Assembly: GCA_963663765.2 (NCBI GenBank) | Contig: CAXXUA010000003.1 | Span: 224,001-288,000, forward strand | DNA from: Candidatus Poribacteria bacterium | GTDB lineage: Bacteria > Poribacteria > WGA-4E > WGA-3G | DNA length: 64,000 bases | Direction of reading: 5' to 3' | Shown: piece after piece, positions 1 to 24,706 of the stretch | Layout of the letters: every line of letters begins with the position of its first letter | Position numbering within the stretch: the first letter of the stretch is position 1 | Notes under the pieces: model-generated | Told to the model about the DNA's origin: nothing | Database searches by the model: none | What the model saw: the letters and a program-made list of their open reading frames with translations, nothing else | Made by a program: the position numbers and the translations under genes

Positions 1-3000
1 AACGCTGAAAGAATCAATGAATTAAGTACCAAATTTGGCAGAATCCAACCACTTCTTAGTGAACTCACCTCTTTAGTTAGACGTTTTCCGAATTCTCCAT
101 CACTTAAACGTGTTACTGCATATTTTAACGCAGTATCAGATGATTGGCAAGAGGCAATTCAAATATATAAAGAAGTGGCGATTACTTCAAAAGATTTCAT
201 TGACTGGTTTAATGTAGCGGTATCAGCGTTGAATTTGAATGAAGAAGAGTTCGCTTGTTATAGTTTAGAGAGATTCTTCAATGGTGTTTCTGTAATTGAT
301 AAGCCGAATGCATGGTATATTTATGTCAATCTCGTAGAGAAATTCAACAATCTTTCTGCATTCCGTGATCTGTGTAAAATAGACGAAAACGATGTTGCTG
401 AAAATGAAATTGAGATTTTATTGGACACGGCTATATATCTCTTTAAGAGGAAGGTTACCACAGAATTAGCAATAGAAATTGTACAAAAACGAATCAAAGG
501 TGAACCCGCTGTATCTTTGTTAAAAGAAGTCTCTGCAAAACTTGGTGGTCAGTCCGTTGAATCTTTCCGTCAATTCTTGGAAGAATTCATGAACGAGAGG
601 ATTGCTTCAGAAGAAAAAGACAACTCTATACATCTGGGATATTCTGAACCCTTTGGAAATACTAAAGCACCTACTCGCGATGTAACACTACAAAAACCTT
701 ATTCACGACCAACAGTTAAACTTACAGGGGAAGAACTTTATAGAAAAGCACAGAGAGCCGATAAAATAGACAAAAACCTTGCGAAAGCAGAAAAACTTTT
801 CCGAGAATGTATTCGTCAAAATATTCGGTATGACAGTGCAATTAAGGATTTAGCGATGGTGCTCGTGCGATTAGATCGTTCGTTGGAAGCCGTGGAACTT
901 CTTGAAAAATATCGGCCAGATGTAGAAGATAAACAGTCTTTAGATAATACTCTCATAATGGTATATCCAACTGCGGATCAGTATGAGAAAGCAATTGATC
1001 TTCTTAACAATTCTCTTAAACTAACTTCAGAGAGAGAAAAAAGGGCGCATATACACTCGCAAATATCCAGTAATTACATTAAATTAGGAAATTATTCAAA
1101 TGCAGAAAAACAATTCCGAGAGGTGCTAAAGTTACGGCCTAACAATATCACCGTGCAACGGAACCTTGCACTTTGTCTCTCAAAACAAGACCGTTATACA
1201 GAAGCAGAAGAAATCTTAAACCGAATTCAAAATATCTCTCCTAATGCTAAAACTGCTGAATTATTGGAAGCAATTGAAAAGGCAAAAGCAACTGGAGAAT
1301 TTATTCTTGATGATGACAGTTTTATTCCGACACCTTCAGATTTTTCTGGTGAATTAAGCGAATTTGCACATTTCTTTCTGAAACGTTGTGAGTTTGAAGG
1401 TCTGGAATCCAACATAATTGCCCAAAGAGTGCAAGATGGAAAATATACGGGGTCGGAAAAAGACGTAAAACGCGATATTGATAGACTTAGAGTAGTCTCC
1501 AGCAAACTGGGTCCTAGTAGTCCACGAGAACGTAGTAACTATAATCTATCTGCAGCCAGAATCTATTTTGATATAAGAGATAATAGGGATTCTTTTTATC
1601 AAGACCTTTGCCGTAGTTTTGCTTCAAGAGGCGATGCTGCAGTGATTGAAAATAGGGATTTAGATGCTGCGAGGGGGTGGTATTGTGAAGCACTGACCGT
1701 TTACGATGGAGCCAGAATTCATCATGGAAATGATGAAATAGGTTCTCTTGTAAAAGATGCAGATGGCTCACTTGTCAGGTATCTCTATTCAATATTGGGG
1801 GCTGAACGTATACCACGACCACCTAAGATTCCATCTGTCAGTACAGCGGTATCAGATGTTATTTGTACTGAGAGTGAAAAAGTTTTCGATGCAATAGTTT
1901 ATTTAGTTTCACACAGTGGATATGCTTCTGAAAAAATTTTACGTTGTCTTTACGAAAACACATCCTTACGAAGTATAGCTCTAAAATATTTAGAAAAAAA
2001 AGTGTTAGATCATCATCTTCCTGTTAAAGGTCAGAGTGATTTCATTCAATTGTGGAACGATTTACGACACAATCAATTTGGCAAAGCACACAGTATTTCA
2101 AACGGTTTAAGGGTTTTACAGACTTTTGAAATCTCGGTAGCTTGGTTGGAAGATAACATTAAACACATAGAAAATATTCGCACTAACCTTTTCTTTGAAT
2201 TAGACAAACAGAGAATTGCAGAATTACGGAGAATATTTTATACTGCATTAGAACTTTGCCAACAGAAAGTGTTTGGAGAACAGGAGTATCGTTGTAAGTT
2301 ACTCGATCGTTTCTGTGAAGATCTACTCGGACAAATTGAAATGAATCCAACAAAGTTTTCAGTAGAAGATGTTTATCCACTTATTGATGTTATTCACCAG
2401 AAAGTTAAAGAACATCTAGAAGGACTCTACGAAACTTTGAAACCTCAATTGACATTAAGGTTAGCAGAAGGAAAGGAATCTTGTGTGCCAGTTGATAGGA
2501 GAATTGAGGTGCAAATTGTTGTGGAGAATGAAGAAGGACGAATGCCTGCTGATGCATTAAAATTAGTAGCTCAGGCGGATGAATCATTTTTTGAAGTAAC
2601 AGTGCCAGATGTTGAATTAGCAGAATCATTGCGCGGAGGTAAAGACGCTCAGACAATTCTAAAGGTTCCTTTGCGTTTAACAGATGCAGCTTTGCAATCA
2701 GAAGCATTCTCTCTACCTATTTACGCTGAGTACGGTATCCGTGGAGGAAAACGAGATAAAACTCCAGTTCAAAATCTCTCTGTCAGACTTAATTCAGAAG
2801 ATGCGTTTGAGAAAATTGCAAACCCTTATGCGCGTTTTGCTGAAGGAGGCGTTGTTGGGGATGCGGAGATGTTCTTTGGACGTGATGAGTTAATTCAAAA
2901 TATTTCAAAGTCCATTAAAGAATCTCATTTTCAAAGTAAGTCAGTTGTTGTATTTGGACAAAAACGATCTGGAAAATCCTCAGTTTTGTATCACCTAAAG

Positions 3001-4011
3001 AAATCACTTCAAGAAGATAAAAATTTGCTTATTCTTGATTTAGAAAACATTGCTGCAATTCTGGGAGAGAATTCTAATGTCTCACTCTTAACCCTGATTT
3101 TCAAGAACATTTTATCAGAATTGCAAGATGCTATCGAAGATCACATAGATAAAGGTTTTACACCTTTAGAAATTGCTATTCCTTCTGATATGGACTTCTA
3201 TTCACATCCTAACCCTCAGCAGTGTTTTGGAAGTATATTTAGGAGTTTCAGACGTGAGATTTCTAAACAGGAAGATTGGCGTGATGTCCGGGTTGTCCTA
3301 CTGATTGATGAATTTCAGTATATTTATTCTCGAATTGTTGATGGTAAGATTCCCGAATCGTTCATGCAAAGTTGGAAGGCTTTTTTGCAAGCAAACTATT
3401 TCCATACAGTTTTAGTAGGTCAGGATGTAATGCCAAAGTTTAAAGCACGTTTTCCTAACGAGTTTGGTACAACTCAAGATGAGCGGGTTACTTATCTGAA
3501 ACCAGACGATGCACGAAGACTTATTGACGAACCCATACGCATTGGTGGCAGACAGGGTGACAGTCGCTATCGTGAACAAGCAATTGAACGGATTTTGGAT
3601 CTCACTGCTGGCAGCCCGTTCTACATTCAAATTATTTGCAACCGTCTTGTTGAATACATGAACGTTAAACACGCTGGACTTGTAACAGAGGCAGACGTTG
3701 ACCAGGTTAAGAATGAATTGATACGCGATGTAAATGCGTTAGGTTTAGACAAATTTGATAATCTCATCAATTCAGGAGATACCTCACCAGATGCTATAAC
3801 AGATGAAGATGTCATAAAAGTCCTTAAGATAATTGCTGACAATAGTAGTAAAACAGATCCTTGTCCTCGTGATAAAATTGTTTGCCAAACAGGTTCACCA
3901 ATTGATACTATTCTGGATGATCTTGAGAAGCGAGATGTTGTTAAACGCCGCGATCAATCTTATCAAATTCAGGTGGGACTTTTCAGAGAGTGGCTGATTG
4001 AGAACGGTTAA
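1..4011 (+). CDS. Large TPR-repeat + C-terminal STAND-like P-loop ATPase/wHTH protein (5' end lies outside the window)
   Basis: Frame is open from base 1, so the ORF-track start at 175 is an internal GTG. TPR-like repeats at about aa 185-370 of the track protein, then an Ig-like segment, NPY..G...FFGR, Walker A GQKRSGKSS, Walker B LLIDEFQ, and a GSPFYIQ helical motif. Confidence 0.8.
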   Translation, partial: NAERINELSTKFGRIQPLLSELTSLVRRFPNSPSLKRVTAYFNAVSDDWQEAIQIYKEVAITSKDFIDWFNVAVSALNLNEEEFACYSLERFFNGVSVIDKPNAWYIYVNLVEKFNNLSAFRDLCKIDENDVAENEIEILLDTAIYLFKRKVTTELAIEIVQKRIKGEPAVSLLKEVSAKLGGQSVESFRQFLEEFMNERIASEEKDNSIHLGYSEPFGNTKAPTRDVTLQKPYSRPTVKLTGEELYRKAQRADKIDKNLAKAEKLFRECIRQNIRYDSAIKDLAMVLVRLDRSLEAVELLEKYRPDVEDKQSLDNTLIMVYPTADQYEKAIDLLNNSLKLTSEREKRAHIHSQISSNYIKLGNYSNAEKQFREVLKLRPNNITVQRNLALCLSKQDRYTEAEEILNRIQNISPNAKTAELLEAIEKAKATGEFILDDDSFIPTPSDFSGELSEFAHFFLKRCEFEGLESNIIAQRVQDGKYTGSEKDVKRDIDRLRVVSSKLGPSSPRERSNYNLSAARIYFDIRDNRDSFYQDLCRSFASRGDAAVIENRDLDAARGWYCEALTVYDGARIHHGNDEIGSLVKDADGSLVRYLYSILGAERIPRPPKIPSVSTAVSDVICTESEKVFDAIVYLVSHSGYASEKILRCLYENTSLRSIALKYLEKKVLDHHLPVKGQSDFIQLWNDLRHNQFGKAHSISNGLRVLQTFEISVAWLEDNIKHIENIRTNLFFELDKQRIAELRRIFYTALELCQQKVFGEQEYRCKLLDRFCEDLLGQIEMNPTKFSVEDVYPLIDVIHQKVKEHLEGLYETLKPQLTLRLAEGKESCVPVDRRIEVQIVVENEEGRMPADALKLVAQADESFFEVTVPDVELAESLRGGKDAQTILKVPLRLTDAALQSEAFSLPIYAEYGIRGGKRDKTPVQNLSVRLNSEDAFEKIANPYARFAEGGVVGDAEMFFGRDELIQNISKSIKESHFQSKSVVVFGQKRSGKSSVLYHLKKSLQEDKNLLILDLENIAAILGENSNVSLLTLIFKNILSELQDAIEDHIDKGFTPLEIAIPSDMDFYSHPNPQQCFGSIFRSFRREISKQEDWRDVRVVLLIDEFQYIYSRIVDGKIPESFMQSWKAFLQANYFHTVLVGQDVMPKFKARFPNEFGTTQDERVTYLKPDDARRLIDEPIRIGGRQGDSRYREQAIERILDLTAGSPFYIQIICNRLVEYMNVKHAGLVTEADVDQVKNELIRDVNALGLDKFDNLINSGDTSPDAITDEDVIKVLKIIADNSSKTDPCPRDKIVCQTGSPIDTILDDLEKRDVVKRRDQSYQIQVGLFREWLIENG

Positions 4012-4021
4012 TGGAGAAGAT

Positions 4022-5527
4022 ATGAATTTTGAAAATCCTTTTGTAAATTATGGCAAAATTGTTCGTGGTGAACGTTTCATTGGACGTCATAAAATTCATA
4101 GTGTGATTGAAAACCGAATTATTTATCCTGTTAACCCTGGAAATTTAGCCATCATTGGTGTGCATCGCATTGGCAAAAGTAGTCTTGCTTACAAAACAAT
4201 CATTGAACAAAAAGAGAAACTAATTGCTAAGGGAATCCTGCCTATTTGGATTGGACTATCTTCCTACGATCAGTCATCAGAGTTTTTCAGTTCGCTGGTA
4301 GTTGAATGTGTCAATGAAATGGAAGATTTAGATTGGCTAACTGAGAAAATTCAACGTTTAGCTGATCGTGCATTAGAAGATGGTGCTACGTGGGACCGAA
4401 CAAGACGTTTTTTTAAAGAAGTGCAAAAAGCTGGATATGGTACACTTTTCATTCTGGATGAATTTGATCATGCTCGTTATATCTTCAAGGGTGAGACAGC
4501 ATTCCAACGTTTGCGAGAATTAGCCGATTATCCAGATTACCGTTTGTCGCTTGTGCTCACGTCCCGTCGTAGCATTAAGGATATTGAAACCGCGGCTGGT
4601 TCTTCATCTCCGTTTCATAACATTTTCCAAGTACAACGTTTAGCCATGTTCAATGATGATGACTTAGCAATCTACTTTTCCCGATTTTCAGATATGGGAA
4701 TATCTATATCTGATGAACAAAGACAACGGGTGTTGTTCTATTGTGGAGTTCACCCCTACTTGTTGGAAATGTTAGGTTGGGAAATCGTTGAGAGGTATCG
4801 TCAAAATCAAGAACAAGATGTTGATATCGATTTAGCAGCAGATACTATCCTACAGTCTATCTTTGGTCATTATGACGATATGATTCGGTTGCTGCGGGAG
4901 GAAGAAACCTTAAATAAACTTCTCCAGATTTTATTTGGTCCTGCCATTGATGTTACACCAACAGATGTAACAGAACTTGAAAACTACGGTTTGATTAAGT
5001 CAGTTAATGAATGTCCTTATATTGCATACTCAGAACACTTTCACGATTACCTAAAACTACATGAAAGTGCAACAGAATTTGTTGATGATTTACATTCTAT
5101 CTGGAGCAAAACTGAGAATGTGCTCCGCGAGGTAATCACAACAACCATGTTTGGTGTATTTGGAGATGATTGGATTGAAGAATTCGAGAAAACACGCCCT
5201 AATCTGAAACAGATTTTCGATAAATGTCGTCAAGCACAACAGAAGGAAGAAAAGTCATTTCCAGATCAAGCATCACAAAATCTAATTGATTATACCTATC
5301 CAGCAGATCTGTTTAGGATAATTCTTGGTAAAGGAATATGGGATCAGCATTTTCAAACAATCTTTGGTCAATATACGGGTTACTGGGACGAACGGGGTAA
5401 GTTTCTTGCGAAATGTAGAACTCCTTTGGATCACAACCGGGATAAAATACTTAAACCTCACCAACGAAAAATATTTGAAGCGTATTGTGATGAAATTCTG
5501 GGAGTGCTGTCTAATAGCATCCAGTGA
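4022..5527 (+). CDS. STAND-like ATPase with C-terminal Swt1-like HEPN domain (putative RNase effector)
   Basis: NPF...FIGR, Walker A GVHRIGKSS, Walker B FILDEFD, GVHPY motif. C-terminus has E..LR..I...FG.DW, DYTYPADLFRII and an Rx4H motif RTPLDH. ATG 4022 follows GGAGA (track start 3998). Confidence 0.75.
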   Translation: MNFENPFVNYGKIVRGERFIGRHKIHSVIENRIIYPVNPGNLAIIGVHRIGKSSLAYKTIIEQKEKLIAKGILPIWIGLSSYDQSSEFFSSLVVECVNEMEDLDWLTEKIQRLADRALEDGATWDRTRRFFKEVQKAGYGTLFILDEFDHARYIFKGETAFQRLRELADYPDYRLSLVLTSRRSIKDIETAAGSSSPFHNIFQVQRLAMFNDDDLAIYFSRFSDMGISISDEQRQRVLFYCGVHPYLLEMLGWEIVERYRQNQEQDVDIDLAADTILQSIFGHYDDMIRLLREEETLNKLLQILFGPAIDVTPTDVTELENYGLIKSVNECPYIAYSEHFHDYLKLHESATEFVDDLHSIWSKTENVLREVITTTMFGVFGDDWIEEFEKTRPNLKQIFDKCRQAQQKEEKSFPDQASQNLIDYTYPADLFRIILGKGIWDQHFQTIFGQYTGYWDERGKFLAKCRTPLDHNRDKILKPHQRKIFEAYCDEILGVLSNSIQ

Positions 5528-5584
5528 ACTCATCTGAAGCATCATTACACAAAAGTACTTTCATTTAAGACAGAAATGTAACGT

Positions 5585-7099
5585 TTATGCATACGCGAAG
5601 CGATCAACACGTTTTTCCAATGGCTCCATCTCCTCAAGAATGGCCCCTATGAGGTTTGCCTTATCAGCTGCATAAGCGGGATTATCCCAGTGGTTAACGC
5701 GTTCAGCAGGATCACTTTCCAAGTCGTAGAGTTCACCATACGGATGTCCGCAATACCATGTCAACTTCCGCGTGTCAGTCACAATGGTTTTAAGACGCAA
5801 ACCTTGTGGGTCGTCAACACATTCCACCAACAATGAATCTCTCACAGACTCTTGTTCTCCAGTAAGCATCGGCATTGCGTCCACACCATCAATATCGGAT
5901 GGGATCGGCAACCCGGCAGCAGCAAGAACAGTCGGGACAATATCAACATGACTGAAGAGAGCCTGTGAACGTTGTCCAGATGGAATAGCAGCAGGATACC
6001 GCATTAAAGTCGGCACGCGGACAAGTTGCTCATAATGGAAAGGTCCCTTCATCCAAAGTCCGTGGTCACCCAACAGTTCTCCGTGGTCTGTCGTAAACAG
6101 GACTAACGTATTATCGCGCATCCCTTGCGCATCAAGACATTCCAAAATGCGTCCCATCTGCTGATCAATAATCTTCACCATATTGTAATAATATGCTCTA
6201 CCGAGTCTCGCATCGTCCTCAGAGACTTTGCGAAAATCTGCACCGCCACCTTGTCCCGCCATCGCAAACTTGCCTTTTGTCTTTGAATTTCTAAGTTGAC
6301 CACACCGAGCTTCCATAAAGTGTGGAGGTTTGTCCTCCAACTCACCTTCAACAAAATCTGGCAGCAGTACTTCAGCAGGATTAACGCGTTCCTCAAATTC
6401 AGTTGGTACACAGTGTGGATGGTGCGGGTCTTGAAAACCGACTGACAACAAGAAAGGTTGATCAGCATCACGGTTTGTCAAAAAATCTATCGTTCGATCA
6501 GCAGTCCAAATACTGTTGTGGTATTTTAGGGGAATATCCCAATCGTGCGCGCCACCACCAAAACCTACTTTTGACAGACGTCTCGCTTTGCTGTAACTGG
6601 CAAAATCTTCTGCAGAAACCTGAGATTTCACCCACTCACCATAATGTCCGGCGATACCATACGTTGCATGACCGAGTGCTAATTCTATTGTCTCAAATCC
6701 GTAGTAAGGTCCGCAGAAATCTGGGTAACGATCCGTGTTGTTTCGCGTTTCCATTGATAGTTCTGGGGATGCACCAAAGGGTTGAAAATGAGCTTTACCA
6801 ATGTAGTGTGTGCGATATCCAGCTTCCGAGAGTCGGTTTGAGATCATCGGTTCATCTTCGGGGACATTCATACCAACATTCCATGCACCGTGCCGACTCA
6901 CATACTTACCAGAAAAGATTGAAGCACGGGCAGGAGTGCATACTGGATTTGTACAATACGCACGTTCAAAACAGACACCTTCAGCTGCAAATTTGTCTAA
7001 ATGCGGAGTATCTGTAAATGTTGAGCCGTAGCAGCTGAGACTATCCGTACGCTGCTGGTCGGTCGTAATAATGATTATATTCGGACGTTGTGTGTTCAT
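5585..7099 (-). CDS. Sulfatase (formylglycine-dependent, choline-sulfatase-like)
   Basis: TDQQR, CTPARAS (CxPxR), GKAH, DPHHP, TTDHGE and LYDLESDP motifs. Confidence 0.92.
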   Translation of the reverse strand: MNTQRPNIIIITTDQQRTDSLSCYGSTFTDTPHLDKFAAEGVCFERAYCTNPVCTPARASIFSGKYVSRHGAWNVGMNVPEDEPMISNRLSEAGYRTHYIGKAHFQPFGASPELSMETRNNTDRYPDFCGPYYGFETIELALGHATYGIAGHYGEWVKSQVSAEDFASYSKARRLSKVGFGGGAHDWDIPLKYHNSIWTADRTIDFLTNRDADQPFLLSVGFQDPHHPHCVPTEFEERVNPAEVLLPDFVEGELEDKPPHFMEARCGQLRNSKTKGKFAMAGQGGGADFRKVSEDDARLGRAYYYNMVKIIDQQMGRILECLDAQGMRDNTLVLFTTDHGELLGDHGLWMKGPFHYEQLVRVPTLMRYPAAIPSGQRSQALFSHVDIVPTVLAAAGLPIPSDIDGVDAMPMLTGEQESVRDSLLVECVDDPQGLRLKTIVTDTRKLTWYCGHPYGELYDLESDPAERVNHWDNPAYAADKANLIGAILEEMEPLEKRVDRFAYA

Positions 7100-7113: not shown

Positions 7114-7713
7114 TTAATTTCCTTGTACTGCTTTGAAAACAGAATTCATTGCACCAAACAAGATAGGTAAATTTGCTAAAGTAAAGTTGGTTCGATTTCG
7201 TGTAAAGACATCACCAACAAGATTTCCAAATTGCCACATAATTCCATCGGTGACAATGCCATGCACAGGAAAATTTGTATTGTCATTTATTTTCTGTGCT
7301 GCGACTAACTCTGCCAAACACTGTCCCCATCCAAGTTCAAAGTCGTTCTTTTTCGCTTCAACCATCATTATCAATGGTGTTCCGACAACAGTGATACCCA
7401 ATTCAGACTTTGTGGCAATAAGATAATCTGGTGTTCCATTCAAAGTTTCATCATAAGTGATGGATTTCTTTACCCAAAGTCCGTAGTTTTCTGCATAATC
7501 TTTGTAGATCTCTCTTAAAATAGGAAATATGACCACTTCACATCTTGATCCTTCTGATGTAAAAAAATCAATGTGTTGTTGACTAAATTCAAGTTCTTTC
7601 AAAAAATGTTCTGAAGGAACTTTCGCCTCAGCTTTGAAAAAATCATTGTACGTGTATTTGATATTGAACTTTTCCTGAACTTCAGAAATTGTCTTGAAAT
7701 CACTAAATGCCAT
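7114..7713 (-). CDS. PD-(D/E)xK / HsdR-N-like nuclease-fold protein, paralog 1
   Basis: GTPDYL...VEAKK...GQC.AE..AAQ...GIVTDG..W motif. ATG 7713 follows GGAGG. Confidence 0.6.
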   Translation of the reverse strand: MAFSDFKTISEVQEKFNIKYTYNDFFKAEAKVPSEHFLKELEFSQQHIDFFTSEGSRCEVVIFPILREIYKDYAENYGLWVKKSITYDETLNGTPDYLIATKSELGITVVGTPLIMMVEAKKNDFELGWGQCLAELVAAQKINDNTNFPVHGIVTDGIMWQFGNLVGDVFTRNRTNFTLANLPILFGAMNSVFKAVQGN

Positions 7714-8057
7714 GAGGACTACCTCCACACTTCCAATATGAATTAGGTCTTACGCAAAAACGGTAAGCGCGCTTTGTCTGCTCGCTAAAAACTCAAGATA
7801 CTTCTAAGAATGGACTGTTTAGGCATATTTATTGAAAATCTGTGAAAATTGCGTCCATCCTATTAATTTTCGCATTTAGTCGTTTTGGACTTAGAAACGG
7901 TGCGCGAGCACCTGACAGGTTATAGTGGGGTCTATATGAGCATGATAGAGGTTTTAGTTGCTATTGAAGCATGCTTGGAATAGTTCGCATCATTATACGG
8001 ATCAGATCACCACTATAATGTTGCGTATACACCTTTGTATGTAGCGGAGTCATGCTC

Positions 8058-9478
8058 TGACATACTCCCCAAGCTAAAGCATGGGGGTTCTTAGTTCTTA
8101 TATTGGAAACGGTTTGAGTTGTTTCCAAACGACTTTTCCTGCTTCCGTGTCTCGTGCCCTTTCCTGAACAGCGTTGGGTCTTATTTGCACTCCACAGGCG
8201 TGACTTTCGGTGTGTCCCACCGTAGTTGGTTTCAAGTTTATTGCAGCATTGACATCTCTATCTATAGACATATCACATTGACTGCAGTGATACATTCTTT
8301 CTGAAAGTGTTAGGTCTTTCTTTTTGTGTCCACAACCGGAACAGGTTTTACTACTTGCAAAGAACATATCTGCTTCTTTGACAGGTATACCGTGCACTTC
8401 TGCTTTTGTCTTGAGTTTTAGCAGGAAACTGCCTAATGCTGTATCTGACAATGCTTTTGCGAGGTTTCTGTTCTTCAGCATATTAGTAACCTTGAGTGTC
8501 TCAATACCGATCGCAGATGCGAGGTTGACAATCTCTGTAGTTGCTTTATGATGTGCATCGTTTCGGATACAAGCGATACGATAGTAGATACGTTCTAACT
8601 TGTGTTTTTGTTTGAACCAGTTGTTAGACTTGAAAACTTTTCTACTTAATCTACGTTGTTCTCTTGCTAACTTCTTTTCATATCGTTTCAGGGGTCTTGG
8701 ATTATCATATTTCGTGCCATCACTCAATGTGGCAAGTGTGTTTATGCCTACATCTATACCAATCACAGGGTGCGTTGAGTTATCAACTGCTTCGGTGTCC
8801 TCTGTTTCTATGGTGATAGATACAAACCAACGATGTGCTGTCCTTGAGATCGTCACTTTCATAATCTTACCCACAAAACGCAATGATTCAAACATGCTAA
8901 TCCAACCAATCTTAGGAAGTTTGATACGCTTACCTTCAACTTCTACAGATTGATTATTTGTGGTGAATGCGTCCTTTTTGCCACGCTTCTTGAACTTCGG
9001 AAATCTCGCACGCTTACCAACCCAACTCGCAAGCGCAGCAGACAAGTTACCAAATATGCTTTTATTGGCTACAACCTGATCCATATCTTTAGTCCAAGCA
9101 TGTGCTTTCTTAGCAATATTAAATCGAGTGTTTAACTTCGCAGCGGATAAGAACTCATCATTTGCCAATGCAGACTTGAAATCTGCTAATGCATGATTAT
9201 ATGCAAATCTCGCATAGCCACACTGTTGTGCAAACCATTTTCGTTGATTGTTATTTGGATTCAATGCAATCTTATGTGTTTTTAGCATGATCATATTCCA
9301 GTCCTATGAAGACGTCAGTTCCCTCTACTAAAGGTGTGTAGGTGTTAGTAGCACCTACACTGAACTGGTATAATGAGTATCTCATGTTTTAAACCAAAAA
9401 TCAAGTTTTTTCTTGACACAAGCACTTAGCACGACTACATCCCACTACCTAAAGGTAGGGGTTTTGTCGTGATTCTTG
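8058..9478 (-). mobile_element. Non-autonomous IS200/IS605 (IS1341-type, tnpB-only) element
   Basis: Left-end hairpin cccactacctaaaggtagggg (~9441-9461), preceded on the minus strand by TTTAT|CAAGAATC. Right-end hairpin ccccaagctaaagcatggggg (~8067-8087), ending in TGTCA on the minus strand. Confidence 0.8.
8098..9294 (-). CDS. tnpB: RNA-guided endonuclease TnpB
   Basis: N-terminal HTH_OrfB; RuvC motifs GIDVG, IETL and DRDVNAA; Zn finger CSGC...CSQC. Confidence 0.95.
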   Translation of the reverse strand: MIMLKTHKIALNPNNNQRKWFAQQCGYARFAYNHALADFKSALANDEFLSAAKLNTRFNIAKKAHAWTKDMDQVVANKSIFGNLSAALASWVGKRARFPKFKKRGKKDAFTTNNQSVEVEGKRIKLPKIGWISMFESLRFVGKIMKVTISRTAHRWFVSITIETEDTEAVDNSTHPVIGIDVGINTLATLSDGTKYDNPRPLKRYEKKLAREQRRLSRKVFKSNNWFKQKHKLERIYYRIACIRNDAHHKATTEIVNLASAIGIETLKVTNMLKNRNLAKALSDTALGSFLLKLKTKAEVHGIPVKEADMFFASSKTCSGCGHKKKDLTLSERMYHCSQCDMSIDRDVNAAINLKPTTVGHTESHACGVQIRPNAVQERARDTEAGKVVWKQLKPFPI

Positions 9479-21622: not shown

Positions 21623-24600
21623 TTATTGCTTGTTCAAATGCTTATATGATAAATCTCCAAGTCCGATAAGTTGTAATCCCCCGTTTTCAGTGCCGACATA
21701 AAGCGTTTGGCCAGCAACAGCGACAGAAGTAGCAGTGTCTGGAATTTCTGGTGTTATCCGTTCCCAAGTGTTATCTGCACTTGTTAATCGATAGACCCCA
21801 CCTTGCGTATTCTTTGAGGAACTCACAGCATATAAAGTCGTGTTATCCGTAGTAAAACGGTCGAATATCAGCTGTTGTCCATCTAAATCGGTGATAATGT
21901 TCCATTCCGTGCCATCATTTGAATGCAAAGCACCTTTGTCTGTTGCAATCAAAACGGCTTCGTCAGTGATGAATATCTGCTTGAAAGAGACAACAGATAT
22001 TGGTAGTAAGACAGTATTCCAATTGCGTCCTCTATCAACAGAGCATAGGAGAACTCCATCAGGTTTGCCCACGTAGACAGTATCACCAGAAACACCTAAC
22101 GTGAAACGATTTAATGAGGTTAAATTCGCAAGATCACGAGTATCTTTGATATTAGGATCATGCCAACCTGCTTCGTCATTTTCTCGGGAAAAGTGACGCA
22201 GTATTAGCAGCTTTCGTTGGTGTTCAACGAACAATGTGTTACCACTGATAGCAAATGTACCTAAGATATTTGCCCCCATCTTGAAGAATTTTGATTGCAA
22301 ATTACGAGTATTTTCTCCATCATTCTCTACAGATGTCTGGACTGCTTCCATAAATGTTGCTATAAGATTCGTTCCTCCAAGTGTAGGAACACCTTGAATT
22401 GGAATAAGCGTGTCATTTTGTGCGTCTAAACGGAAAAAGTTTGGTTGGAGTGCTATGAGTCCTTTCGCGTAAAGGTTTCCATCTGCTAATACTAACTGTT
22501 GTATTCTTGCAATACTCTGTATTCTTGATTTGTTCAGTGGCACCTTCTTGTTATAAAAAGTCATCGTCATATCATCTGAATTAACAGGAATTGCTTGCCA
22601 TGATTGTCCATTGTTGGTTGATGTCACAAGTTTCTTATTTGCTATTGCATAGATTTTATTATTAAAGGCGATTAGATTCTGTATTTTGCCACCCAATCCG
22701 GAATTAAATCTGTTCCATGTGTACCCATCATCAGTTGAACGGCGAATTCCGTTGCTATCGCCTGTGTAAAATTGATGGTTCATACTTGTAGATTGATCCT
22801 GATTAGCGGTTCCACTAGGACTTTTTACATTCAAAGCAGCAATAACACGTTGACCTGAAGGGTGGACTAAACGTGCGGCTTCATCAACAGGCATCCATGT
22901 GTTTCCTTCATCAGTTGACCGTAAAGTGTCTTGTCCGATTAACAACACCGTTTTTCCTGCAGCAGCAATCGTCAGTGTTGCACTACGCTGATTTTTTTCA
23001 AAACCATTTTTCGGTGTTATATCTGTCCACGAATAGCCTTTATCTATTGACCTAAAGACTGTCCATAACGGTTGTCCACTTAGTACTGTCTTTAGTGTTT
23101 CCATAATACTTATATCGGAGAGAATTCTAAGTCGTCCTGCTACAATATAAATACGGTGTCCTACCACTGCAATTGCGTGAATGGATTGGGATTCTGCTAC
23201 CGGTAATTGTTCCCAAACACCTGATTTATCAGGACTCTCTTCAAAATAAGGTTTCATGTTGATGCGGAAGAGTCCTTTATCAGTACCAGCAAATAGTACC
23301 TTTTCTGCGGAAGTTATCGTATATATTCTTCTGTCTGCCAAACCTTTGTTTAGCGATGACCAAGAAACACATCTGTCATCAGAGTAAAATATGCCTTGAA
23401 GGAGAGCGAGATAAATCGCAATGGAGTCTGCTGTGTTATCCTTTACGACTACACCAATGGCATGTCCTTTCGGATAAGTACCGAGTGGTGTCCAAGTTTT
23501 GCCTTTGTCTTCCGATGCGAGTATTTCATCATCAGTTACAATATAAAGGGTGTCATTGTGCTCTACCATCGGTGTTGTGTCCTCCGAGGTTGGGAGACTA
23601 TTATTAATTAAATCCCACTTTTGGTTTTCATCTGTCATTCGATACAACCCTATTTGAGTCAATGCATAAAGATCATTTGATTTAGTGGCAAATAGTGTAG
23701 GCACTTTTACAGACTCAGGACTGTCAAACTGAGTCCACCATTCCGTTGAGAGTTGCTCCGCTGTTTCAATGGTCTGGAAAATATTGGTAAGGTTTACGTT
23801 TTGAGAGGTATCCGTTTTCTCGCCAATTCCTTGATTGTTACTGGGAATATCAGTGTTCCCAAGTTGATTACGCTGTTCAGGTTTTATTTCCTGTTCAATA
23901 TTGGTAGGAGTTTCAACGATTTCGACCATTAACACTGATTCGGAATCAAGATCATAAGGTAGAAAAGAAAGAGAAAGGTGTTGTATTCCAATACCTATTA
24001 AAAAAAGAACTAAAATAGCAGAGGCAGCAGAAAGGACCCACGGCAATAAAGGTTTGCTGCCTGAAGGAACAACAGGATTGGTGCGTGATATTTCCTTCAT
24101 TATGTTCTCTGTCAATTGTGTTGGGAGTTGGAAGCTGCTAAGATTCTCTCTAATTGTCGCTTCTTCCTTCTTTAGGCGGTTGCGAGCGCGATTCAGTCGA
24201 CTTTTTACCGTATTCAAAGATACACCGATCATCTTACTAATCGTTTCACAGGTCATTTCTCCGAGATAATGGAGTGTCATGACCGTGCGTTCACTCTCAG
24301 GTAGTTTTTGGAGTAGTTTTTGGACAACTTCACGTAAGGTCTCAGTCGTTTCAATGTCGCGCTTTTCTACCATATACTGTGAATGTGACACTTGATCAAT
24401 CTCCGTTATATCTGTCGTTTCTATTGATTGTATTGGAAGCCGTTTCTTTCGGTACCAGTCAGTACATAGGTTAGACGCAATCACATATATCCAACCTGGA
24501 AACAAGTTGTGGTCTTTCAAAGTTCTAAGTCTTTCATAAGCTCTGAGAAAGGCATCTTGGGTAATTTCCTGTGCTATGTGAAAATCTCCAATTTTACGCC

Positions 24601-24706
24601 ATGCAAGCGCGTGAATCCCTTTTTGGTATTTTTCAACGAGCTCTGTAAATGCTGTTTGATCACCGTCTAATGTCCGCTGAATCAATTCAGAATCGTTATT
24701 ATGCAT
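21623..24706 (-). CDS. ECF sigma-70 factor fused through a TM helix to an extracytoplasmic BNR/YCF48-like beta-propeller
   Basis: Sigma region 2 (AQEITQDAFLRAY, FPGWIY) and region 4 (LPESERTV, VKSRLNRAR); TM at about aa 220-242; several S.D.G.TW Asp-box repeats. Confidence 0.88.
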   Translation of the reverse strand: MHNNDSELIQRTLDGDQTAFTELVEKYQKGIHALAWRKIGDFHIAQEITQDAFLRAYERLRTLKDHNLFPGWIYVIASNLCTDWYRKKRLPIQSIETTDITEIDQVSHSQYMVEKRDIETTETLREVVQKLLQKLPESERTVMTLHYLGEMTCETISKMIGVSLNTVKSRLNRARNRLKKEEATIRENLSSFQLPTQLTENIMKEISRTNPVVPSGSKPLLPWVLSAASAILVLFLIGIGIQHLSLSFLPYDLDSESVLMVEIVETPTNIEQEIKPEQRNQLGNTDIPSNNQGIGEKTDTSQNVNLTNIFQTIETAEQLSTEWWTQFDSPESVKVPTLFATKSNDLYALTQIGLYRMTDENQKWDLINNSLPTSEDTTPMVEHNDTLYIVTDDEILASEDKGKTWTPLGTYPKGHAIGVVVKDNTADSIAIYLALLQGIFYSDDRCVSWSSLNKGLADRRIYTITSAEKVLFAGTDKGLFRINMKPYFEESPDKSGVWEQLPVAESQSIHAIAVVGHRIYIVAGRLRILSDISIMETLKTVLSGQPLWTVFRSIDKGYSWTDITPKNGFEKNQRSATLTIAAAGKTVLLIGQDTLRSTDEGNTWMPVDEAARLVHPSGQRVIAALNVKSPSGTANQDQSTSMNHQFYTGDSNGIRRSTDDGYTWNRFNSGLGGKIQNLIAFNNKIYAIANKKLVTSTNNGQSWQAIPVNSDDMTMTFYNKKVPLNKSRIQSIARIQQLVLADGNLYAKGLIALQPNFFRLDAQNDTLIPIQGVPTLGGTNLIATFMEAVQTSVENDGENTRNLQSKFFKMGANILGTFAISGNTLFVEHQRKLLILRHFSRENDEAGWHDPNIKDTRDLANLTSLNRFTLGVSGDTVYVGKPDGVLLCSVDRGRNWNTVLLPISVVSFKQIFITDEAVLIATDKGALHSNDGTEWNIITDLDGQQLIFDRFTTDNTTLYAVSSSKNTQGGVYRLTSADNTWERITPEIPDTATSVAVAGQTLYVGTENGGLQLIGLGDLSYKHLNKQ

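Follow-up and report, generated by a model that had tools for sequence, protein, structure and literature searches.

Two linked genes for related STAND-type ATPases, a candidate conflict module with a predicted HEPN ribonuclease output

Introduction

The nSTAND2 operon is a mobile two-gene unit of STAND-type nucleoside triphosphatases (NTPases) that has been described computationally (Kaur, Iyer, Burroughs, Aravind 2021, eLife, PMC8195603). Its effector-bearing NTPase, the NTP-binding motifs of which are eroded, is predicted to be inactive within a hetero-multimer (PMC8195603 section 15), and its second protein joins nSTAND2, a winged helix-turn-helix (wHTH), TPRs and HEPN, with a GT4 effector instead in some cases (PMC8195603 source data). 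As far as the accessible portion of the paper by Anantharaman et al. 2013 goes (PMC3710099), the fusions of Swt1-like HEPN domains catalogued there include 'STAND-ATPase, TPR, S1', an entry with three locus tags. Avs proteins, by the partial accounts at hand, place an effector, an NTPase and a C-terminal sensor on a single polypeptide. In plants, the sensor and helper NLRs of the NRC network divide sensing and execution between two related NB-ARC/STAND proteins. The present analysis concerns two adjacent genes, ORF1 and ORF2 (ORF, open reading frame), at the 5' edge of a 64,000-nucleotide (nt) stretch of DNA from a Candidatus Poribacteria bacterium (assembly GCA_963663765.2, contig CAXXUA010000003.1, positions 224,001 to 288,000). 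This 64-kb stretch is called the window below.

Sequence comparisons identify the pair as a real, widespread and unnamed candidate module, apparently a paired STAND-type NTPase conflict system with a known plan. The reading that we favour, at a probability of roughly 0.55, is that ORF1 and ORF2 form an NTPase-centred conflict (immune-type) module with input through ORF1 and output through a HEPN domain of ORF2.

Results

Two genes conserved as a unit

As an earlier note on this DNA had reported, the two genes are tightly linked, being read from the same strand across a gap of 10 nt (Table 1). The complete product of ORF1 is represented by a database protein of 1544 amino acids (aa; P0123), which matches the window exactly over the shared part. 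The window thus lacks the first 208 residues of ORF1, and recovery of the upstream sequence added a probable N-terminal Sm/SH3-like barrel to the domains named in the earlier note. Residue numbers of ORF1 refer to the 1336-aa part in the window unless the full-length protein is named. No further copy of either gene was found elsewhere in the window. Downstream of ORF2 the next gene is a convergent sulfatase gene, and no intrinsic terminator site was found in 5300-5800. In other genomes, relatives of ORF2 recur with ORF1 homologues alone, as follows.

A pattern-limited scan of 185,579 species genomes, one per species, yielded 56 loci with an ORF2 relative. They represent no fewer than nine phylum-level groups (Poribacteria, Latescibacterota, Chloroflexota, Cyanobacteria, Bacteroidota, Desulfobacterota, Spirochaetota and others), between which identity is 47-50%. 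Fifty-two loci are informative, with 1.8 kb or more of sequence ahead of the ORF2 homologue, and in 51 of them an ORF1 homologue lies directly upstream; the earlier note's proviso that the homologues might turn out unlinked is not borne out. The distance from the end of the ORF1 homologue to the ORF2 match is 4-31 nt in 50 loci and 268 nt in L046. In a 53rd locus (L023), 306 nt of flank suffice to reveal the last 37 residues of the ORF1 partner, while L018, L019 and L044 have flanks too short to judge. When the ORFs of the 56 loci and the window with a length of 120 aa or more (1046 in all) were clustered all against all, two recurring families emerged, present in 57/57 and 52/57 sources, and no third conserved gene, the next most frequent family occurring in 7/57. 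Pairwise identities of the ORF1 core and of ORF2 are correlated (Pearson 0.88 over 946 pairs from 44 loci, a figure that relatedness alone inflates); such correlated divergence fits inheritance and transfer of the pair as a unit. These comparisons support the description of ORF1 and ORF2 as a conserved, self-contained and probably horizontally mobile two-gene module.

Several family copies are found on one 10.3-Mb contig. Two loci have an extra ORF1-type paralogue a few kb downstream of the pair (L015:16511-20172 and L039:12407-13630); the copy in L039 consists of the ATPase core alone and is 70% identical to the core of the window's ORF1. A complete pair, about 50% identical to that of the window, occurs on a 7.4-kb contig labelled as a metagenome-assembled genome of a Nitrososphaerota archaeon (L026), where lateral transfer or a binning error is possible. 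In the closest genome locus (L001:10001-11509, 86% identity) the ORF2 homologue is present only as a 421-aa ORF from 10138 (P0053, 80% coverage), and its 5' end may be disrupted.

Table 1. Features of the two-gene locus and of other genes in the window. Empty cells: no entry. pLDDT, predicted local distance difference test.
Feature	Position (nt)	Strand	Residues	Remarks
ORF1, 3' part of large partner ATPase	1..4011	+		1336 of 1544 codons plus stop (TAA, 4009-4011); 5' end open, no start in window
TPR region	733..1290	+	ORF1 ~245-430	Pfam TPR_19 E 3.4e-14, TPR_12, TPR_2 and others; PDB TPR matches
Central region	1291..2445	+	ORF1 ~431-815	No family match; ~40-50% identity among long orthologues
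All-beta domain	2446..2790	+	ORF1 816-930	AlphaFold2 strands at model residues 11-124; block pLDDT 79-93
ORF1 core: NPY...FFGR lead-in, nSTAND1-type P-loop ATPase, helical domain, winged helix	2791..4008	+		Pfam, model, PDB
ORF1 Walker A, GQKRSGKSS	2956-2982	+	from ORF1 986	
ORF1 Walker B, LLIDE	3298-3312	+	from ORF1 1100	
Spacer ORF1-ORF2	4012..4021	+		10 nt; GGAG at 4013-4016, five bases before ORF2 ATG
ORF2, ATPase + winged helix + predicted HEPN	4022..5527	+		501 aa; start ATG at 4022; identical to database protein P0003
ORF2 ATPase module, NPF...FIGR lead-in to winged helix	4022..5071	+	ORF2 1-350	AAA_22 E 6.5e-6
ORF2 Walker A, GVHRIGKSS	4157-4183	+	from ORF2 46	
ORF2 Walker B, FILDE	4448-4462	+	from ORF2 143	
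Swt1-like HEPN domain (predicted)	5090..5524	+	ORF2 357-501	Homologue matches to PF18731; all-helical in model
Rx4H motif, RTPLDH	5417-5434	+	ORF2 466-471	Motif search
204-aa ORF	7114-7728	-		No Pfam match at E<=1e-5
TnpB/IS605 OrfB-type gene	8098-9294	-		OrfB_IS605 1.2e-30, Cas12f1-like TNB, HTH_OrfB
1027-aa ORF	21623-24706	-		Sigma70 r2, r4; Sortilin/Vps10-type repeats; DUF6242

Two distantly related ATPases

The earlier note had ascribed the same three ATPase motifs to both genes. Two of them are indeed shared: each protein has a single match to G..R.GK[ST]S, and hhhDE is present in both. The third does not hold as written, the literal pattern NP[FY]..G...F.GR matching neither protein, whereas a looser spacing matches both (NPYARFAEGGVVGDAEMFFGR; NPFVNYGKIVRGERFIGR). 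BLASTP detects no similarity between ORF1 and ORF2. Profile-profile alignment with hhalign joins them over 334 columns, which begin at the NP[YF] lead-in and include the winged helix, with a probability of 94.8% and an E value of 5.4e-8; the likeness of the two ATPases therefore exceeds chance. Structural models concur, the archaeal proteins 2qen and 2fna being the top matches of both modules in the PDB, followed by ORC/Cdc6 and by NB-ARC proteins (NRC4, then CED-4, for the ORF1 core). By these comparisons the ATPase modules of ORF1 and ORF2 are distant paralogues, and both proteins display the P-loop, helical domain, winged helix and intact Walker A and B motifs of STAND/ORC-Cdc6-like AAA+ proteins.

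In ORF1, residues 954-1195 match Pfam nSTAND1 (PF20703) with 34.2 bits (cut-off 27.1; E 3e-8), a stretch that AAA_22 and AAA_16 match as well. The same family is found in the orthologues L001, L009, L048, L005 and L021 at E<=5e-6, the last alone scoring below the cut-off (26.8 bits). The G, K and S columns of Walker A and the D and E columns of Walker B are invariant across the ORF1 family. The window's ORF2 matches AAA_22 alone (26.9 bits) in a Pfam scan, with no match to nSTAND1, for which three of its relatives score 28.1 (P0356), 27.0 (P0293) and 24.1 bits (P0389). In an alignment of 35 ORF2 homologues (53-88% identical to P0003, itself counted as the first), Pfam finds HEPN_Swt1 in 27, AAA_22 in 23, ATPase_2 in 15, AAA_16 in 13, AAA_35 in 7 and NACHT in 2, and residues G51, K52, S53, S54, D146 and E147 are invariant in 35/35. 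Also invariant in the family are R182 and R183, part of an S-R-R patch.

Comparison with described systems

Neither protein reaches any system model in PADLOC-DB v2.0.0 or NCBIfam release 20. The earlier note's remark that it could match the pair to no named system stands to that extent; there are partial precedents in Anantharaman 2013 and Kaur et al. 2021.

The nSTAND2 operon shares with the present pair a plan of two genes, each encoding a STAND-type NTPase with a wHTH, the second ending in HEPN, together with a variable effector and a predicted hetero-multimer; the pair might on this account be a divergent member of that system. We regard this as highly improbable. The effector-bearing NTPase of nSTAND2 has eroded motifs, whereas both NTPases here have invariant Walker A and B motifs, including Lys52 and Asp146/Glu147 of ORF2. 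Its TPRs lie between the wHTH and HEPN of the second protein; here they are N-terminal in the first protein and absent from ORF2, in which the helices of the HEPN region begin a few residues past the winged-helix region. The alternative effectors differ too, being Schlafen, kinase and EAD7 in the present family. Compared by description, the nSTAND2 clade is MNS-like with Proteobacteria as its listed hosts, while ORF1 matches nSTAND1 and not nSTAND2. In the nSTAND1 source data of the same study (PMC8195603), 0/23 occurrences of 'HEPN' adjoin nSTAND1.

The entry in Anantharaman 2013 has the same HEPN family together with a STAND-type ATPase, TPR and an OB-fold RNA-binding domain, and relatives of the present pair carry a cold-shock domain (CSD); it differs, compared by description and within the accessible text, in being a one-line catalogue item that does not state a two-gene pairing. 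Avs proteins resemble the pair in having a STAND/AAA+ ATPase, TPR-type repeats and a nuclease-type effector, and a structure search with ORF2 retrieves Avs3 (8dgc). In Avs, as far as the sources go, everything is on one polypeptide; here there are two proteins and the repeats are N-terminal. The Pfam layout of ORF1 and its orthologues confirms the earlier note in that TPRs preceding the ATPase are the reverse of the Avs order, and no Avs model is among the PADLOC matches at E<=0.1. The Arch_ATPase (PF01637) proteins PABY2304 (2qen) and SSO1545 (2fna), with ORC/Cdc6, match both ATPase modules best in structure (moderate TM-scores, 0.41-0.45 on query length), but they lack HEPN, TPRs and paired genes. 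NRC2/3/4 structures are among the fold matches, and the likeness to paired plant NLRs is one of analogy: the effector chemistry of the latter is different, common descent of the pairing is unsupported, and the present genes form a translationally coupled operon.

DS-41 of DefensePredictor was considered as the same system and rejected, DS41_1 scoring 22.1 bits against a cut-off of 370 and over the P-loop only. CoCoNuT, the ParA-HEPN/HINPO systems and the Avs families of a 2026 STAND survey were considered as well; the accessible parts of the respective papers describe no such pair. The available text of Kaur et al. 2020 describes none either, its main text having HEPN in the references only. 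Within the literature searched the pair is undescribed; subscription-only papers, bioRxiv supplements and file 13 of PMC8195603 could hold a description.

Predicted co-assembly

The earlier note had proposed that sensor and effector are split over two co-assembling ATPases. Co-assembly is favoured by the correlated divergence described above, by a natural fusion and by complex prediction. The fusion protein (P0315, 1108 aa) consists of an ORF2-type ATPase (residues 1-389, E 3e-75) followed by an ORF1-type core (475-1106, E 1e-169), with no HEPN domain; its order is reversed relative to the operon, and it is therefore no read-through artefact of the usual gene order. A search among longer proteins for a fusion in operon order found none, such a blank being weak evidence. 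Its sole match was a 1225-aa protein of Beggiatoa sp. PS (P0245) with two tandem ORF2-type ATPases and no HEPN, an arrangement showing that the module works in multiples. By eye, the N-terminal ~550 aa of this protein show a kinase-like HNDLH...DLGD signature.

A complex of the ORF1 core (alignment residues 120-530) with ORF2 was predicted with a score of 0.70, the best of three controls scoring 0.00, so that the multimer prediction proposed in the earlier note came out positive. The mark applied is reached by 116/157 solved complexes and by 2/215 mismatched pairs, counts that hold roughly here because custom alignments were used. Between runs, 90% or more of the contacts agree, and the partner has a pLDDT of 80 or higher. 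The predicted interface sets the NPY lead-in and Walker A region of ORF1 against ORF2 residues 24-41, 121-129, 158-172 and 184-208, beside the invariant S-R-R patch, and the ATP site of ORF1 might conceivably be completed by a basic residue from ORF2. Side-by-side packing of AAA+ modules is well represented in solved ORC/Cdc6 and clamp-loader complexes, and the positive score may therefore partly be the model's memory. On balance, co-assembly of ORF1 and ORF2 appears likely.

Direct binding, as predicted, and a tight, translationally coupled gene order with the partner first would also suit a toxin-antitoxin-like arrangement, with ORF2 as a self-sufficient ATP-gated HEPN toxin and ORF1 as its restraint, the loss or titration of which would free the RNase. 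An orphan ORF2 locus (L054, see below) is in keeping with this, and a neutralising partner is common for HEPN toxins according to the accessible portions of PMC13000451 and PMC3710099. The arrangement is nonetheless improbable in our estimation, since restraint would hardly require a multidomain ATPase of 1544 aa whose Walker motifs are invariant, and both the swapping of effectors on a constant ATPase (next section) and the HEPN-less fusion P0315 point to signalling between ATPases.

Proposed output: a Swt1-like HEPN domain in an exchangeable slot

In the conflict module with ORF1 as input, the output would come from the C-terminus of ORF2. The earlier note had placed there a Swt1-like HEPN domain with an RTPLDH motif, an assignment upheld at the level of the family. 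PF18731 (HEPN_Swt1) matches 27/35 homologues at E<=0.001 (best 7.2e-11); 6/6 homologues checked exceed its cut-off, with 29.4-38.6 bits at residues ~360-490; and the pair R466/H471 is invariant in 35/35. In the model of ORF2 (pLDDT 77.8), the ATPase and winged helix extend to about residue 350, and residues 357-500 are exclusively helical. The ATPase dominates fold searches with the whole chain, in which Avs3 appears at rank 23 (E 2.5e-4), and at the sequence level neither ORF2 nor its family profile retrieved more from the PDB than a chance-level GrpB match (E 0.25-0.36). The assignment of the C-terminal domain as a Swt1-like HEPN and predicted RNase is thus supported by the homologues.

A profile of the ORF2 ATPase has 4082 matches, of which 541, counted as clusters of 50% identity, reach E<=1e-30. 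The public names that relatives bear are 'ATP-binding protein', 'hypothetical protein', 'DNA-binding protein' and 'tetratricopeptide repeat protein'. Thirty relatives were chosen from the best 150 of the 4082, either by their greater length or by a match to the profile that ended near position 350. The position C-terminal to the ATPase is taken in these by a protein kinase (Pkinase, 6/30), Schlafen AlbA_2 (5/30), a CSD (4/30), tandem HEPN (2/30), the effector-associated domain EAD7 (1/30), AAA_21 (1/30) or the ORF1-type core of P0315 (1/30), and by nothing new in 10/30. HEPN RNases need two Rx4-6H motifs paired, and the tandem-HEPN variants fit this need. HEPN proteins are called 'typically dimeric ribonucleases' in the accessible portion of the DefensePredictor paper. 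As judged from these architectures, the C-terminal slot is exchangeable, which amounts to effector swapping of the kind typical of conflict systems; the combination of an unchanging NTPase with an effector position that varies is considered a mark of counter-invader systems (Kaur et al. 2021, PMC8195603 section 15).

Proposed input: the N-terminal arm of ORF1

Full-length ORF1 comprises, in order, the probable Sm/SH3-like barrel, TPRs, a helical region, a beta-sandwich, the nSTAND1-type ATPase and a winged helix. The TPRs that the earlier note had placed ahead of the ATPase are confirmed by Pfam at residues ~245-430 (TPR_19 with 53.4 bits against a cut-off of 25; TPR_12, TPR_2 and TPR_16 at 316-420), and neither ORF2 nor any of its 35 homologues has a TPR match in Pfam. 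A Pfam search of window positions 1300-2850 gave no family match, yet residues 430-940 are matched by 184 proteins and so are conserved despite the absence of a family name. AlphaFold2 modelled residues 807-1336, with 37 orthologues in the alignment, at a pLDDT of 91.3 and a predicted TM-score (pTM) of 0.89, as an all-beta domain (model residues 10-124) followed by the P-loop ATPase, a helical domain and a winged helix. The 'Ig-like segment' of the earlier note thus corresponds to a real beta-sandwich at 816-930, the Ig-like identity of which is not established. Identity across phyla is 40-50% in the input region and 60-80% in the ATPase.

A conserved domain of about 60 residues opens nearly all complete ORF1 orthologues, in long and short forms alike. 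Its library matches are weak and all below family cut-offs: LSM in 7/23 members (best 4.3e-5) and the RimP SH3 domain in 12/23, with 0 family matches for the N-terminus of P0123 itself. Against the PDB, the profile best matches the C-terminal SH3-like domain of biotin ligase (E 5e-4), then Hfq/LSm chains (E ~0.02). The domain is by these comparisons probably a small Sm/SH3-like barrel, and RNA binding is not implied, because its best match is the biotin-ligase domain. A CSD (PF00313) precedes the TPRs in 2/8 orthologues scanned (L038, L048); by Pfam, the window's own ORF1 has none. Natural short forms of ~500-560 aa exist (L005, L010, L021, L032). That of L021, seen in full, consists of the barrel, a linker and the ATPase with winged helix, lacking TPRs and beta domain, and the N-termini of the other three also show the barrel. 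The constant core of ORF1 would thus be barrel plus ATPase, with the long middle part as an accessory input arm. Of the split proposed in the earlier note, the part that makes the TPRs the sensor is accordingly not established, since the barrel and, in some orthologues, a CSD are also present and the short forms lack TPRs.

The conflict module might instead be set off by RNA, the barrel and cold-shock domains binding foreign, damaged or uncharged RNA and licensing HEPN while the TPRs serve as scaffold, a version of our preferred reading with another trigger. The constancy of the barrel in long and short forms, including those without TPRs, agrees with this, as do the weak LSM, RimP-SH3 and Hfq/LSm matches, the CSD of L038 and L048 and of the four ORF2-type relatives that end in one, and the combination of S1 with STAND-ATPase and TPR listed in the accessible part of PMC3710099. 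RNA as the trigger is a possibility, if a rather unlikely one, given that the barrel scores below every family cut-off and best resembles biotin ligase, that the window's own protein has no CSD, and that Sm-like folds can be pure oligomerisation modules.

Genomic context and points of weakness

The case for an immune-type role of the ORF1-ORF2 module is indirect, built on its patchy distribution, varied gene contexts, paralogue expansions and some defence-type neighbours. The neighbours include a restriction endonuclease, a methyltransferase and SNF2 in L034, NERD with UvrD in L047, CHAT in L036, PDC-S03 in L043 and a methyltransferase in L051. As evidence for anti-phage function, the neighbourhoods are mixed.

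A number of observations count against the module as we read it. The matches that PADLOC and NCBIfam did return are weak and confined to the P-loop or HEPN region (mad8 and PDC-S01 at 1.8e-4; PDC-M34B at 2.4e-6, 25 bits). The HEPN domain of the window's own ORF2 scores 16.1 bits (E 0.014) against a PF18731 cut-off of 27.5, and its motif loop (467-475) is modelled at pLDDT below 50. In L054 (7711-9951), the one exception among the informative loci, the 10 kb around the ORF2 relative (34% identity) contain no ORF1-type gene, and a molybdopterin oxidoreductase is found upstream. The controls of the complex prediction were unrelated proteins, none of them AAA+, and its positive outcome may mirror remembered AAA+ packing. 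Among neighbouring ORFs, 14/141, in 10/20 loci, match PADLOC at E<=1e-10, a count that has no baseline, and several of these matches are generic (kinase, UvrD, cysteine desulfurase). The flank visible in the window, cut off on the upstream side, is housekeeping plus TnpB (sulfatase, UbiA/UbiX, glycosyltransferases). Searches by tblastn against 72,556 plasmids and against 50,697 phage records brought up no copy. Finally, the ORF1 input region, at the identity given above, is not hypervariable, unlike many fast-evolving sensors.

The housekeeping flank, the half of sampled loci that have no PADLOC neighbour, the fairly conserved input region and the absence of plasmid or phage copies would be in line with a housekeeping or regulatory role in RNA processing, such as stress-linked RNA turnover, outside any conflict with mobile elements. 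This we judge quite improbable in view of the patchy distribution (the 56 loci of the scan, with its stated limit, at 47-50% identity between phyla), the conservation of the pair alone in varying contexts, the local paralogues and the exchange of the output domain for Schlafen, kinase, EAD7 and others, the counter-invader mark of PMC8195603 section 15.

Three genes on the minus strand of the window may be mentioned in their own right (Table 1). A TnpB/IS605 OrfB-type gene lies 2.6 kb downstream of the pair, with a 204-aa ORF between it and the sulfatase gene. Farther along, a 1027-aa ORF joins an ECF-type (extracytoplasmic function) sigma factor to Sortilin/Vps10-type repeats and DUF6242, an unusual sigma-factor fusion.

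Discussion

If ORF1 and ORF2 do form a conflict module with ORF1 as input and ORF2 as HEPN output, it could operate as follows. ORF1 would carry the input modules N-terminal to its ATPase (barrel, TPRs, helical region, beta domain and sometimes a CSD), and ORF2 the output module C-terminal to its own, the predicted Swt1-like HEPN RNase. The two ATPase modules would form a hetero-oligomer by side-by-side packing, in which ORF1 would set its nucleotide-binding face against the ORF2 face next to the S-R-R patch. A trigger acting on the N-terminal modules of ORF1, either a foreign protein through the TPRs or RNA through the Sm/cold-shock modules, would together with ATP promote higher-order assembly; HEPN domains of adjacent ORF2 subunits might then meet to form an active dimeric RNase, and cleavage of cellular or invader RNA would lead to growth stop, an abortive-infection-like outcome. 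In this scheme the binding of ORF1 to ORF2 is a structural prediction, and we infer the trigger, the direction of signalling, the RNase activity and the immune role.

A bolder version can be put forward tentatively, with odds that we place well below even. The pair would be a sensor and an executor, both active as ATPases and hetero-oligomerising like plant paired or helper NLRs; the Sm-like/TPR arm, sometimes with a CSD, would read RNA or ribonucleoprotein, and the output would be exchangeable. Such an immune family would be abundant in sponge symbionts, Chloroflexota and filamentous cyanobacteria and would have been missed by defence catalogues.

Should the preferred reading be right, the family, with its 541 clusters, would be a large and unnamed immune-type module with sensing and killing divided between two related NTPases, both apparently active, a principle little documented in bacteria. 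It would widen the range of STAND/AAA+ immune architectures and offer a tractable heteromeric switch for a HEPN RNase, and its exchangeable outputs would make it a natural system for asking how one ATPase chassis drives different effectors. It would also add to the defence content of poorly studied phyla such as Poribacteria, Latescibacterota and Chloroflexota.

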